64,000 nt of DNA, taken from positions 8,781 through 72,780 of IMG/VR virus record IMGVR_UViG_3300020440_000014. One strand, 5' to 3'. Each line of letters begins with the position of its first letter. Position 1 is the first letter of the stretch. This DNA comes from a virus. Taxonomy: Duplodnaviria > Caudoviricetes. This document shows, piece by piece, positions 49,511 to 60,702 of this stretch. Under the pieces are notes generated by a model. That model was not told the DNA's origin, made no database searches, and worked only from the letters and a program-made list of their open reading frames with translations. The translations under genes were made by a program, and so were the position numbers.

Positions 49511-50815
49511 ATGTTTTTATCAGAAAACTTACAAGAAAAGTGGTCGCCTATTCTAGAACACTCCGATTTGCCAAAAATCGAAGACAACTACAAGAAGGCA
49601 GTCACAGCAGTTATTCTTGAAAACCAAGAGAACGCTTTACAAGAAGATAGAGCTGTTCTTTCAGAAGCTGCACCTTTAAACTCTACTGGAGCTGCTATTT
49701 CTAATTGGGACCCGATTTTAATCAGTCTCGTTAGAAGAGCAATGCCAAATCTCGTTGCATACGACATTTGCGGTGTTCAACCTATGACAGGTCCAACAGG
49801 TCTTATATTTGCTATGAAAGCAAGATATCAAGACGATGCTAACGCTACAAGAGATGCTCAATCAGAAGCATTATTCAATGAACCAAGAACTGCTTTTTCA
49901 GCAGGTAATTCAGGTGACATTGACAACACAGCTGACCCAGACCCAGAAGGTAACCCATTTGCTAGTTCAAGTGCGTATGAAAACGCTACTTCAACTGGTA
50001 TGTCAACCGCAAACTCAGAATCATTAGGTGATGCTTCAAGCAACCACTTCAATGAAATGTCTTTCACAATCGAGAAAAGCACGGTAACAGCAGTTTCAAG
50101 AGCTTTAAAAGCAGAGTACTCATTAGAACTTGCTCAAGACCTAAAAGCAATCCACGGTCTAGATGCAGAATCAGAACTCGCTAATATTTTATCATCAGAA
50201 ATTCTATCAGAAATCAACAGAGAAGTTGTTAGAGAAGTAAACAACCAAGCTAAAGTAGGTGCATCAGCAACTGCTTCAGCAGGTACTTTTAACTTAGACG
50301 TTGATGCTAACGGTAGATGGTCTGTAGAGAAGTTCAAAGGATTATTATTCCAAATCGAAAGAGAATCAAATGTAATCGCTAAAGAAACAAGAAGAGGTAA
50401 AGGTAACTTTATCCTATGTTCTTCAGACGTAGCATCTGCTCTTTCAATGGCAGGAGTATTAGATTACACTCCAGCACTATCAACTAACTTAAACGTTGAT
50501 GACACAGGTAATACATTTGCTGGTGTTCTTAACGGAAGAGTTAAAGTATATATTGACCCATATGCTGGTTCAGATTACTTAACCGTTGGTTACAGAGGGT
50601 CTAACCCTTACGATGCTGGTATGTTCTATTGCCCATACGTACCATTACAAATGGTTCGTGCCGTTGGTGAGAATACTTTCCAACCAAAAATCGGATTTAA
50701 AACAAGATACGGTATGGTTTCAAACCCATTCGTAGGTTCATCACCTGCAAACGGTCTTGCTTCCGATGGAACTAACCAATACTACAGAAAATTAGCAGTA
50801 TCTAACATTCTGTAA
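49511..50815 (+). CDS. gp23: Major capsid protein
   Basis: LQEKWSPIL, LVRRAMPNL, GVQPMTGPTGLIFAM, LKAEYSLELAQDLKAIHGLDAESEL, FYCPYVPL; probable gp21 cleavage site LSE/AAP. Confidence 0.98.
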   Translation: MFLSENLQEKWSPILEHSDLPKIEDNYKKAVTAVILENQENALQEDRAVLSEAAPLNSTGAAISNWDPILISLVRRAMPNLVAYDICGVQPMTGPTGLIFAMKARYQDDANATRDAQSEALFNEPRTAFSAGNSGDIDNTADPDPEGNPFASSSAYENATSTGMSTANSESLGDASSNHFNEMSFTIEKSTVTAVSRALKAEYSLELAQDLKAIHGLDAESELANILSSEILSEINREVVREVNNQAKVGASATASAGTFNLDVDANGRWSVEKFKGLLFQIERESNVIAKETRRGKGNFILCSSDVASALSMAGVLDYTPALSTNLNVDDTGNTFAGVLNGRVKVYIDPYAGSDYLTVGYRGSNPYDAGMFYCPYVPLQMVRAVGENTFQPKIGFKTRYGMVSNPFVGSSPANGLASDGTNQYYRKLAVSNIL

Positions 50816-50832
50816 AAAAAGTTTCGACTTTT

Positions 50833-50861
50833 AAAAGGGGTCTTTTTAGACCCCTTTTTTT
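50833..50861 (+). terminator. Rho-independent terminator after gp23
   Basis: AAAAGGGGTCT-TTTT-AGACCCCTTTT plus a T run. Confidence 0.9.
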
Positions 50862-50865
50862 ATAC

Positions 50866-50873
50866 ACTAAATA
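50866..50873 (+). promoter_or_regulatory. Late promoter variant ACTAAATA immediately upstream of the riboswitch
   Basis: TAAATA core 6 nt before the aptamer 5' end; the same ACTAAATA variant occurs at 28155. Confidence 0.55.
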
Positions 50874-50879
50874 ATAATA

Positions 50880-50940
50880 ATCGTTCATTCACTCTAAATG
50901 TAGCAGTGAACGGAAGTAGGCATGGGGCCGAAGGAACGCA
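50880..50940 (+). ncRNA. Glutamine-I riboswitch (glnA RNA motif)
   Basis: P1 CGTTC/GAACG, P2 TTCACT/AGTGAA, CGG-AAGTA...GAAG E-loop and P3 GGC/GCC. The order and conserved nucleotides match the glnA aptamer (AUCGUU...GGAAGUA...GAAG.AACGC). Confidence 0.88.
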
Positions 50941-50972
50941 TTTTTGTTCAACCTTTAAACGGAGGAATGGAA

Positions 50973-51092
50973 ATGACAAAGAAGAAGGCTGACCTCAAGT
51001 TAGTATACCGTGGCACTCGTCACAATGGTGAATCTACAAAGTCAAAACCACAGACCAAGGGTGTATACCGTGGTCAAAAGTGGTCGGCTTAA
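50973..51092 (+). CDS. 39-aa DUF4278-like peptide (two YRG motifs); not in the ORF track
   Basis: MTKKKADLKLVYRGTRHNGESTKSKPQTKGVYRGQKWSA*. GGAGG RBS at 50961-50965. An in-frame ATG at 50967 is an alternative start. Confidence 0.8.
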   Translation: MTKKKADLKLVYRGTRHNGESTKSKPQTKGVYRGQKWSA

Positions 51093-51110
51093 AATAACCT
51101 ATATACTATA

Positions 51111-51141
51111 GTAGTTGGGGGTTTCTAAAACCCCCTACTAC
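51111..51141 (+). terminator. Strong hairpin downstream of the peptide ORF (terminator or stabiliser; no U tract)
   Basis: GTAGTTGGGGGTTT-CT-AAAACCCCCTACTAC inverted repeat. Confidence 0.55.
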
Positions 51142-51173
51142 GACATAAACACACATACACACAGGAGGAAATT

Positions 51174-51392
51174 ATGTCAAATCACGCAAAATCTGGGTAC
51201 GAAATCCGTGCCGATTTACTATCTCTAGCAGAGAGTGTTATTATCAACAACATCGAGAATGAAAGGCAAACCATATATTCATGGAATGACAATCATGCTG
51301 AGTCTAAAAAGGAGATACCTTTAAGGACATATTCTGCTCAAGATGTTATTAATACTGCAAAGCAGTTTAATGATTTCGTTAACGAGAAGTAA
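51174..51392 (+). CDS. Small conserved hypothetical protein
   Basis: GYEIRADLL.LA and DVINTAKQFNDFV motifs; AGGAGG RBS. Confidence 0.7.
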   Translation: MSNHAKSGYEIRADLLSLAESVIINNIENERQTIYSWNDNHAESKKEIPLRTYSAQDVINTAKQFNDFVNEK

Positions 51393-51449
51393 GTTAAGAT
51401 AAATAGTAAAGTGGGGTGAAATTATTCGCCCCCCTTAGAAGGAAATAAA

Positions 51450-56117: not shown

Positions 56118-56684
56118 ATGTCAAATTTTTTTGCTTTATCAATGACAAAATTCTTTCGTCTTATAGCAGATACATTTTTTGCACATAGATATGGACATAG
56201 AGCAGTTGTTCTAGAAACTATTGCTGGTGTACCTGGTATGGTAGCAGGCATGTGGATTCACTTAAAAAGTCTTAGACAAATGAAAACAGGACATGGTCCT
56301 ATGATACGTGAACTTTTAGCAGAAGCAGAAAATGAACGTATGCATCTTATGTTCTTCATAGAGATTACTAAACCAAATATCTTTGAGAGATATCTTGTTC
56401 TTTTTGCACAGGCAATCTTTTGGATATTCTATTTTGTTTTATATGTTTTATTCCCTAAAACAGCACATAGAATGATTCACCATTTCGAAGAAGAGGCAGT
56501 TAAATCGTATACAGAATATCTTGCTATGGTAGAATCTGGCGAAGTCGAAAACGTACCAGCACCAAAACTCGCAATTGATTATTATGGTATGTCTGAAGAC
56601 GCTAAACTATCTGATTTAATTAAAAAAGTTAGAGCAGACGAACAACACCATAGTGACATTAATTACAAATACTCAATCGAATAA
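56118..56684 (+). CDS. aox: Alternative oxidase (AOX; di-iron ubiquinol oxidase)
   Basis: LETIAGVPGMVAGM, EAENERMHL, EEEAVKSY and RADEQHH supply all di-iron ligands. The VPGM motif is AOX-type rather than PTOX-type (RVPYF). Confidence 0.92.
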   Translation: MSNFFALSMTKFFRLIADTFFAHRYGHRAVVLETIAGVPGMVAGMWIHLKSLRQMKTGHGPMIRELLAEAENERMHLMFFIEITKPNIFERYLVLFAQAIFWIFYFVLYVLFPKTAHRMIHHFEEEAVKSYTEYLAMVESGEVENVPAPKLAIDYYGMSEDAKLSDLIKKVRADEQHHSDINYKYSIE

Positions 56685-56733
56685 ATACTAAAAAGCACTT
56701 ACAATCCAAGTGTTTCTAGTGTATTATCCATAT

Positions 56734-57279
56734 ATGGCAGACAAAAAACAAAACGAACACTATGTCAATAACAAAGAGTTCACAACAGCAGTCGCCGAGC
56801 ATAACGAAGCAGTTAAACTCGCCGAATCAAAAGGAGAAACACCTCCAAGAATGTCCGACTACATAGGTGAATGCATTTATAAGATTGCTACTCGTCTATC
56901 TACTCGACCAAACTTCATTAACTATACTTACAGAGACGAAATGATTTGCGATGCAATCGAGAATTGTATACAATATATCGGCAACTTCAACAGAGAAAAA
57001 TCAAATAATGCTTTCGCATACATTACTCAGATTTGTTACTATGCATTTTTAAGAAGAATACAAAAAGAAAAGAAACAAGTATTCATTAAACAAGAAGTAT
57101 TAAAAGAAACAGGTATATCAGAAGCTGCTTTTGATACTATAGATGGTGATACTAGTGGCATGGTAAATTCAAATGTAGAATGGTTACAAGACAATTATAA
57201 TCCTGTTAACTACGAACCAAGAAAATCAAAGAGAGCAAAAACTAAAGAACAGAAAAACTTAGAAAAATTTACTGAATGA
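56734..57279 (+). CDS. gp55: Late transcription sigma factor
   Basis: HYVNNKEF, YIGECIYKIATRLS.RPNFINYTYRDEMI.DAIENC, NAFAYITQI.YYAFLRRI.KEKKQ. Start set to ATG 56734. Confidence 0.96.
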   Translation: MADKKQNEHYVNNKEFTTAVAEHNEAVKLAESKGETPPRMSDYIGECIYKIATRLSTRPNFINYTYRDEMICDAIENCIQYIGNFNREKSNNAFAYITQICYYAFLRRIQKEKKQVFIKQEVLKETGISEAAFDTIDGDTSGMVNSNVEWLQDNYNPVNYEPRKSKRAKTKEQKNLEKFTE

Positions 57280-60055: not shown

Positions 60056-60063
60056 ATATCAGT

Positions 60064-60702
60064 ATGTATGAATTAGTAGAAGAAGCAAGTAAGGTATTAA
60101 GAACACCACCACCCGAATTCGATTTCGAAAATCCAAAAGAGGACCCAAAAGAAATCGAAAAAAACATGGTAGAAGCAATGAAAAAATTTGGCGGTATTGG
60201 TCTATCTGCTAATCAAGTAGGGTTACCTTATAAAATGTTTGTTATGGACACTCAAGATAAAGGACCTGTAGGATTTTTTAATCCAAAAATTACAAAAGCG
60301 TCTTCAGATACAGAAAACATGAAAGAGGGGTGTTTATCTTTCCAAGACATATACGTAATGATAAAAAGGTCAAAAGTAATAGAACTAACATATCAAGATT
60401 CTGATGCTAAAGAACATACATTGGTTTTATCTGGTATGGCTGCTAGATGTGTGCAACATGAATGCGACCATTTAAATGGAGTTTTATTCATACAACGTGC
60501 ATCAAGATTGAAAATCGAGAGAGCACTAAAATCAAGACCAAAAGAAAGAAAGAAAAGACTAGAATATGAAAAGAGAATTGCAATGGCCAAGTTCATCGCA
60601 GAGCAACAAAAACAACTTGAAGAGTCAAGAACAAACTCAAGTGATAAATCTGAAGGAGAAGGAAATACTGGAACCTCAGATGATAAAGTTGCTCAGACCT
60701 GA
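60064..60702 (+). CDS. def: Peptide deformylase
   Basis: GIGLSANQVG, EGCLS and QHECDH motifs. Late promoter variant CATAAATA at 60051. Confidence 0.93.
   Translation: MYELVEEASKVLRTPPPEFDFENPKEDPKEIEKNMVEAMKKFGGIGLSANQVGLPYKMFVMDTQDKGPVGFFNPKITKASSDTENMKEGCLSFQDIYVMIKRSKVIELTYQDSDAKEHTLVLSGMAARCVQHECDHLNGVLFIQRASRLKIERALKSRPKERKKRLEYEKRIAMAKFIAEQQKQLEESRTNSSDKSEGEGNTGTSDDKVAQT

Follow-up and report, generated by a model that had tools for sequence, protein, structure and literature searches.

A glutamine riboswitch and its short YRG peptide in a T4-like marine phage: a probable SAR86-type nitrogen-status cassette

Introduction

Why does a T4-like marine phage carry a glutamine riboswitch directly behind its major capsid gene, which product does the switch control, in which direction does it act, and from which lineage was it taken? 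The components are familiar: a 2010 study described the glnA RNA together with short ORFs downstream of it (PMC2864571), and its link to DUF4278/gifB and its ON behaviour followed in 2018 (Klaehn et al; PMC6212724). Reports on T4-like cyanophages (PMC9964418) and on the phages Melnitz and Mosig together with ten pelagimyophage MAGs list glutamine riboswitches, with the Melnitz copy being read as controlling ssrA (Buchholz et al, 2022; PMC9004378). Neither the switch nor the peptide family is new, nor is their occurrence in such phages; in the literature, we found no paper that describes a riboswitch-to-peptide unit in such phages or a SAR86 origin.

We consider it probable (roughly 0.75) that the present locus is a host-derived nitrogen-status cassette of SAR86 type, residing in a T4-like marine myophage, starting at a late promoter and using glutamine to turn on translation of a shortened YRG peptide. 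To our knowledge, the analysis of phage riboswitches beyond their detection is still rare; in the present case, it is possible to name the product under control, the expression platform, and the lineage that likely served as donor and host.

Results and Discussion

The cassette lies behind gp23 in a late region

The DNA analyzed is a 64 kb stretch (the window) of an IMG/VR contig that measures 72.8 kb and is estimated to be ~40% complete. It represents the late, structural region of a T4-like myophage with a GC content of 34.5%, in which all ORFs of at least 50 codons except two lie on the + strand. Pfam and PHROGs searches identified genes for the terminase, tail sheath, portal, prohead protease, scaffold, and gp23, as well as for the tail tube, UvsY, a 2OG-Fe oxygenase, a helicase, and a gp55-type late sigma factor. 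At the amino acid level, gp23 is 66% identical to that of Methylophilales phage Melnitz, 65% to that of Pelagibacter phage HTVC008M, and ~62% to those of cyanomyophages. The cassette is found directly 3' of gp23, where an earlier note on this DNA, made from the letters alone, had placed it. The features relevant to the following sections are:

49511–50815, + strand, gp23 major capsid gene (Pfam Gp23, 493.6 bits), the upstream neighbour of the cassette
50833–50861, + strand, terminator-like hairpin after gp23 (GGGGTC, 6-nt loop, GACCCC, then T7), read from the sequence
50866–50873, + strand, T4-type late-promoter-like element ACTAAATA, with TAAATA at 50868–50873
50880–50942, + strand, type-1 glutamine riboswitch aptamer (glnA RNA; RF01739, 59.8 bits)
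50939–50975, + strand, putative expression platform, in which C50939–C50949 pairs with G50965–G50975 and covers the AUG and part of the SD
50973–51092 (stop included), + strand, DUF4278-like 39-aa basic peptide with two YRG repeats, taken from the ORF list
51111–51141, + strand, strong 3' hairpin without a U-tract (10 pairs, one mismatch)
51174–51392, + strand, 72-aa ORF with its own SD and no TAAATA upstream, kept after the hairpin in relatives
56118–56684, + strand, alternative oxidase (Pfam AOX, 226 bits), adjoining the late sigma gene
56710–57279, + strand, gp55-type late sigma factor (phrog_234 'late sigma transcription factor', 198 bits)

Elsewhere in the window, the coarse ORF map shows a 510-nt gap (60056–60565) in which one frame resembles peptide deformylase (GLSANQVG, EGCLSF, HE.DH); this gene was probably missed by the map rather than being absent.

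The aptamer is a full-length member of the type-1 glutamine class

The segment 50880–50942 matches the Rfam family RF01739 over the entire model (positions 1–53 of 53) with 59.8 bits and an E-value of 1.1e-10, compared with a curated gathering score of 35 bits, and RF01739 is the sole Rfam family matched in the whole 64 kb. Alignment to the consensus assigns P1 to 50882–86/50934–38, P2 to 50888–92/50906–10, and P3 to 50919–21/50927–29; the junction strands GGAAGUA and GAAG are intact, and the conserved C located 3' of P1 is C50939. The RF01739 consensus fold is also found in the unconstrained minimum free energy (MFE) structure of 50880–50990. Judged by this match, which agrees with the complete glnA-type aptamer read in the earlier note and answers the RF01739 search proposed there, 50880–50942 is a genuine, full-length type-1 glutamine riboswitch aptamer, and the RNA would be expected to bind L-glutamine.

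The downstream ORF encodes a short two-repeat DUF4278 member

An SD sequence (GGAGG, 50961–50965) begins 19 nt after the end of the aptamer match and lies 7 nt before the ATG at 50973, with the AUG at 31 nt from the aptamer. The ORF that follows encodes a peptide with the motifs LVYRG and GVYRG, and the 11-mer gtataccgtgg occurs twice (51003–13 and 51063–73). The ribosome binding site (RBS), the 39-aa ORF with both motifs, and the 11-nt repeat are thus all present in the sequence as first described. The earlier note had described the unit as missed by the ORF track; gene callers elsewhere have picked up the ORF, and their records include identical or 80–90% identical proteins of 38–41 aa from hundreds of contigs, the longest of ~147 kb, in which these copies are unnamed or annotated as 'hypothetical protein'.

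Searched on its own, the peptide matches Pfam DUF4278 (PF14105) at profile positions 2–34 of 57 with 19.6 bits (E = 0.0012) and stays below the family's gathering score of 25.3 bits because it is short and has only two repeats. In an alignment of 26 phage and SAR86 peptides including the one from the window, all members match PF14105 at E ≤ 0.01 (best 6e-10), and Y-R-G is at least 90% conserved in two blocks. The window peptide aligns to repeats 2 and 3 of three-repeat peptides of 52–56 residues and is 38–50% identical to the three-repeat peptides of SAR86. The proposed relationship to DUF4278 was therefore recovered through all 26 aligned relatives, whereas the peptide by itself falls short of the curated threshold, and we treat it as a short two-repeat member of the family whose own score lies below that threshold. 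As a lead only, the nearest ESM Atlas clusters are all DUF4278 (scores 0.83–0.84). The peptide matches no family in PHROGs, and tblastn against GenBank phages returned chance-level matches only, in Cellulophaga phages. AlphaFold modelling on the peptide alignment yielded, at low confidence (mean pLDDT 72, pTM 0.25), only a C-terminal beta-hairpin with R-G at the turn.

The cassette is conserved in related phages

DNA pattern scans of IMG/VR revealed an identical P3 half of the aptamer in 18 contigs and an identical P2 half in 56. Twelve of these contigs contain a gp23 that is 84–88% identical to that of the window, and the cassette lies directly behind it in 11 of the 12, the exception being L332, where it is found ~0.6 kb downstream of gp23. 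The conservation after gp23 that the earlier note had suggested looking for is thus seen in at least 12 related IMG/VR contigs. Their shared layout consists of a hairpin with a T-run, [C/A]TAAATA, a spacer of 6–8 nt, the aptamer, the SD, an ORF of 38–40 codons, a hairpin, a CA-rich leader, and the next ORF. The hairpin and T-run behind gp23 differ in sequence among the 12 relatives and keep their place, and the 3' hairpin likewise keeps its position in two different sequence types. The aptamer is invariant except for two single-base changes.

Within the ORF of the 12 relatives, the frame and stop codon are kept, the N-terminal indels comprise whole codons, and YRG is invariant, with changes in its codons confined to wobble positions. 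Synonymous divergence exceeds non-synonymous divergence in most of the more divergent pairs (pS 0.32 and pN 0.12 for the window and L089). On these grounds of sequence comparison, the 39-aa ORF is real, conserved, and coding; together with the family match of the relatives, they bear out the DUF4278-like short ORF that had been proposed. In GenBank phages, blastn with 50700–51300 found no match. Melnitz, HTVC008M, and Mosig do not have this placement after gp23.

A related cassette was also observed in a second phage backbone that has no gp23 match (L088, L328, L329, L334, L338, and L342; e.g., L328 4300–4560). There, it follows a holin-like gene and the gene of a 61-aa phrog_17747 protein; P3 has the sequence known from the window, P2 differs, and the 38-aa peptide with two YRG motifs is homologous. 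Because this second backbone is unrelated, the cassette moves between phage lineages.

A plausible late promoter precedes the aptamer, and the transcript probably runs past the peptide gene

In T4-type late promoters, TATAAATA precedes the transcript start by ~6 nt and is read by gp55-RNA polymerase. The predicted start, ~6–7 nt 3' of ACTAAATA, coincides with the first base of the aptamer. ACTAAATA agrees with TATAAATA at 6/8 positions and departs at one position from the ATAAATA consensus of the window. In the 2.9 kb of intergenic DNA of the window, TAAATA occurs 14 times, compared with 5.9 ± 2.4 times in shuffled sequences and four times for its reverse complement; the preceding base is A in 12 copies and C in two, one of which belongs to the cassette. 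The relatives L330 and L332 have the canonical TATAAATA at the promoter position of the cassette. Moreover, the window encodes a gp55-type late sigma factor (57% identical to that of Melnitz), which strengthens the late-promoter reading. The suggestion of a late promoter hence stands as far as TAAATA at the right distance, TATAAATA in two relatives, and an encoded gp55 are concerned, but the core of the window differs from TATAAATA at two positions. We therefore regard ACTAAATA as a plausible but unproven gp55-dependent late promoter.

On both sides of this unit, the hairpins recorded earlier are present. The one after gp23 has the stem, loop, and T7 of the terminator described before, and a consensus terminator scan called neither it (50833–50861) nor the 3' hairpin (51111–51141). 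The latter, also described before, does form a stem of 10 pairs but is followed by GACAUAAACAC instead of the U-tract expected of an intrinsic terminator. As the U-tract is missing, it is not a canonical intrinsic terminator; it is possibly an RNA stabiliser or a weak terminator. The next TAAATA 3' of the cassette occurs at 51400, beyond the 72-aa ORF at 51174–51392, for which no Pfam or PHROG family match was found. Since the 3' hairpin has no U-tract and this ORF has no TAAATA of its own, the transcript probably runs on, so that the 51174 ORF would share the late transcript of the cassette. The idea of a self-contained transcription unit could not be upheld for the same reasons.

The switch most likely acts on translation and is read as glutamine-ON

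The sequestering hairpin of the expression platform has a predicted stability of -11.0 kcal/mol, is part of the unconstrained MFE structure together with the aptamer, and would have to be opened at a cost of ~7 kcal/mol to free the SD-AUG region. Its two arms are invariant in the 12 relatives, in which the loop length and the SD (GGAGG, GGAGAG, and GGAG) vary, and no compensatory changes are seen in this helix within the close family. A broader comparison covered 102 non-identical phage cassettes: the tail following P1 pairs with its own RBS at -6.4 kcal/mol, compared with -4.3 kcal/mol for the RBS of other cassettes (p = 1e-9) and -4.6 kcal/mol for shuffled tails (p = 2e-8), although the sequences are related and these p-values overstate independence. 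As this tail-to-RBS pairing has statistical support across ~100 phage cassettes, control is most likely translational.

The direction of the switch is suggested by homology. C50939 corresponds to the conserved C that forms a ligand-dependent long-range G-C pair in the solved aptamer (model in PMC6212724). According to a proposal for the gifB leader of Synechocystis, the source of the C60/C68 model, this C and the bases following it pair with the RBS and are freed by glutamine; reporter assays with this leader showed activation (PMC6212724). For both glutamine riboswitches tested in vivo, in the gifB and MED4 leaders, addition of nitrogen led to higher expression (PMC6212724). By analogy with the gifB leader, we favour an ON switch. 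Because the folded aptamer and the sequestering helix can coexist in secondary structure, the ON direction depends on a tertiary effect carried over from the homologue.

Two other ways of using the same RNA have to be weighed. The coexistence of both helices in the MFE structure is the classical arrangement of an OFF platform, in which a glutamine-stabilised P1 would leave the tail 50939–49 free to hide the AUG; in the absence of glutamine, pairing of GUUcaaCCUU at 50946–55 with AAGGAAC, the 3' strand of the aptamer, would release the start site. This alternative pairing is present in the window (-4.8 kcal/mol), yet over 100 cassettes the complementarity between the aptamer 3' strand and the linker barely exceeds that of shuffled sequences (-2.65 versus -2.40 kcal/mol) and is not enriched, and L332 weakens CCUU to CAUU while keeping the sequestering arms. 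Given also that the gifB and MED4 leaders respond to added nitrogen with increased expression (PMC6212724), we consider an OFF switch unlikely. Less probable still is that the switch mainly governs the late genes from the 51174 ORF onward through RNA stability or termination, for instance with the aptamer and the U-rich 50940–45 serving as a terminator, and that the YRG ORF is a leader peptide. Between the YRG ORF and the next ORF there is neither a promoter motif nor a U-tract terminator, and a U5 run immediately follows P1, both in favour of this reading. However, a P1 of only 5 pairs would make a poor terminator stem, and the U-rich tail is accounted for by its locus-specific pairing with the purine-rich SD-AUG region. 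The peptide sequence, moreover, has been conserved as protein, and free-standing homologues occur both in SAR86 and in the unrelated phage backbone, so that we give control of the downstream genes very little weight.

Under glutamine-ON translational control, the locus would work as follows. A gp55-dependent late promoter, ACTAAATA, located after the gp23 terminator, would produce an RNA that starts with the type-1 glutamine aptamer. At low glutamine, pairing of C50939–C50949 with G50965–G50975 would hide the AUG and part of the SD, leaving the ORF untranslated. At high glutamine, the ligand would draw C50939 into the long-range G-C pair, the weak, A-U-rich helix would open, and ribosomes would make the 39-aa basic peptide with its two YRG motifs. 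The peptide would be a shortened copy of the riboswitch-controlled three-repeat YRG (DUF4278) peptides of SAR86, which the phage probably supplies to sustain the glutamine-feedback response of the host after shut-off of host expression.

The cassette and an alternative oxidase point to SAR86

A scan of species-representative bacterial genomes for the aptamer core yielded matches in cyanobacteria, where the switch precedes DUF4278 proteins of the MKLTYRG... type, and in SAR86, SAR116, and other marine proteobacterial MAGs. The presence of RF01739 in SAR86 has been mentioned in passing (PMC12379486); we detected it above the cut-off in 64 of 151 sampled genomes of the SAR86 order. Peptides matching that of the window (E ≤ 0.1, best 1.2e-5) were found in 42 of 266 SAR86 genomes, some of them directly behind tandem riboswitches. 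A 41-nt P1-P2 half that is identical to window 50881–50919 and spans P1, the unusually long P2 loop, and the junction is present in five SAR86 genomes, in contigs ranging from 54 kb to 1.6 Mb. The SAR86 aptamer with this stretch comes first in a tandem pair; it deviates only in P3, where G-C is replaced by U-A in a compensatory manner.

Independent evidence comes from the alternative oxidase of the window, which is 69–76% identical to the enzymes of many SAR86 genomes. In a sample of 401 Gammaproteobacteria genomes, the seven matching genomes outside the SAR86-order sets reach at most 59%; the sole match among GenBank phages is Phage C48C1 (60%), and no cyanophage PTOX matched at E 1e-5. The gene looks like a host-derived respiratory auxiliary gene and, as such, a host marker. 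Since the 41-nt aptamer half, the YRG peptides, and the alternative oxidase all point in the same direction, the host is probably SAR86, an assignment based on gene similarity. It fits the heterotrophic host that the earlier note had suggested, and it provides a concrete, testable tie of an abundant phage lineage to the SAR86 clade, both of them uncultured.

The phage unit and its SAR86 counterparts also differ. Compared with the tandem riboswitches and 52–56-aa three-repeat YRG peptides of SAR86, with which it shares the identical 41-nt half and 38–50% peptide identity, the window has a single aptamer, GGC/GCC instead of GUC/GAC in P3, and a peptide that is one repeat shorter. The SAR86 copies of this particular P2 variant, as the first of tandem aptamers, are followed by peptides of another family, whose members end in DNPFYP.

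Among MAGs of SAR86 and related marine Gammaproteobacteria, the riboswitch class is also found ahead of a porin-like gene and of genes for a GSII-type glutamine synthetase (GS), the two subunits of glutamate synthase, and a TonB-type receptor (L167/L249, L186, L193, L236, L136, L152, and L215). In uncultured marine Alphaproteobacteria, tandem aptamers occur with no obvious ORF downstream.

Glutamine synthetase is a doubtful target of the peptide

One possible model for the function of the peptide is the cyanobacterial GS inactivating factor IF17 (or IF7), which would imply that the phage product shuts down host GS at high glutamine, in line with an action on GS that had been considered earlier. 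IF17 includes DUF4278, which in cyanobacteria is, as a rule, paired with the riboswitch (PMC6212724); like the inactivating factors, the peptide is small and very basic, and in SAR86 the same riboswitch class is found before GS and glutamate synthase genes. However, DUF4278 constitutes the N-terminal part of IF17, which contributes to stability and is not required for inhibition; the 39-aa peptide lacks the IF7-like C-terminal region and, with it, the critical residues (PMC6316151). It is this C-terminal part of IF17 that contacts GS, with conserved Arg and Lys residues (PMC6316151, PMC6212724). In agreement, the only match of the peptide, which ends 5 residues past the second YRG, is to the N-terminal DUF4278 part of IF17.

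As far as five SAR86 genomes show, the enzymes themselves also tend to argue against GS inactivation. IF7 and IF17 act on GSI, and we know of no IF-type inhibition of GSII. Four of five SAR86 genomes, all incomplete, contain only a GSII-type frame of 323–332 aa (~325 aa), and the fifth has an additional GSI of 464 aa. Searching solved structures with a profile of the 26 YRG peptides identified no PII protein and nothing else credible at E ≤ 10, and thus no relative of the peptide. With the C-terminal IF7-like part absent and only GSII-type enzymes in four of the five genomes, the earlier suggestion of a possible action on host GS is not supported, and we consider an IF-like GS inactivator improbable. 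A mimic of the PII T-loop was considered as well and rejected, as the likeness is confined to a tripeptide and the profile search contains no PII.

Relation to known systems and the wider repertoire

The closest characterized counterpart is the gifB (IF17) leader of Synechocystis sp. PCC 6803, with which the window cassette shares the aptamer class, the conserved C and the stretch pairing with the RBS, and a DUF4278 gene downstream (PMC6212724); both presumably use translational activation by glutamine. The two differ in that the gifB leader is transcribed from an NtcA-regulated host promoter, whereas the window cassette is phage-borne and preceded by a T4-type late-promoter-like element. Likewise, IF17 has a GS-binding C-terminal part, which the window product of 39 aa with two YRG repeats does not have, and gifB is cyanobacterial, whereas the nearest relatives of the window cassette are found in SAR86 (Gammaproteobacteria).

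The window belongs to the broad group of marine T4-like phages (Kyanoviridae) from which the aptamer class has been reported, and its gp23 is 62–66% identical to those of Melnitz, HTVC008M, and Mosig. For Melnitz, the published reading assigns the switch to ssrA and describes no downstream peptide (PMC9004378), in contrast to the window, where the switch is located directly before an SD and a small basic ORF. Re-reading the Melnitz and Mosig genomes, we found the switch in this position there as well. The assignment to ssrA may need to be revisited, we suggest, in favour of the small downstream ORF. The Melnitz ORF behind the switch (L004 1501–1670, + strand) encodes 32 aa and has no annotation; the switch overlaps the annotated tmRNA at the 3' end of the latter. 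The 51-aa ORF in Mosig (L005 1329–1560, - strand) is annotated as hypothetical protein Mosig_00116.

It is conceivable, although we put it forward only tentatively, that the cassette exemplifies a broad repertoire, not described so far, in which the production of various micro-proteins by marine phages of SAR86, SAR11, and OM43 depends on the glutamine of the host, and that the YRG member acts on a nitrogen-assimilation or signalling protein of the host, such as GSII, PII, or a transporter. If true, DUF4278 would gain its first function outside cyanobacteria. With an aptamer of 63 nt and a peptide of 39 aa, the cassette offers a short, tractable system for the function of DUF4278/YRG peptides.

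At least 100 marine viral contigs (IMG/VR loci L007–L126) contain a glutamine riboswitch 20–37 nt upstream of an SD and an ORF of 16–65 aa. The riboswitch-led ORFs fall into at least six unrelated families, comprising YRG, basic W-C-Y/F, ...DPRLQGI, ...GTSGY..., ...DNPFYP (behind tandem aptamers), and KNNWQLVLIK-type peptides.
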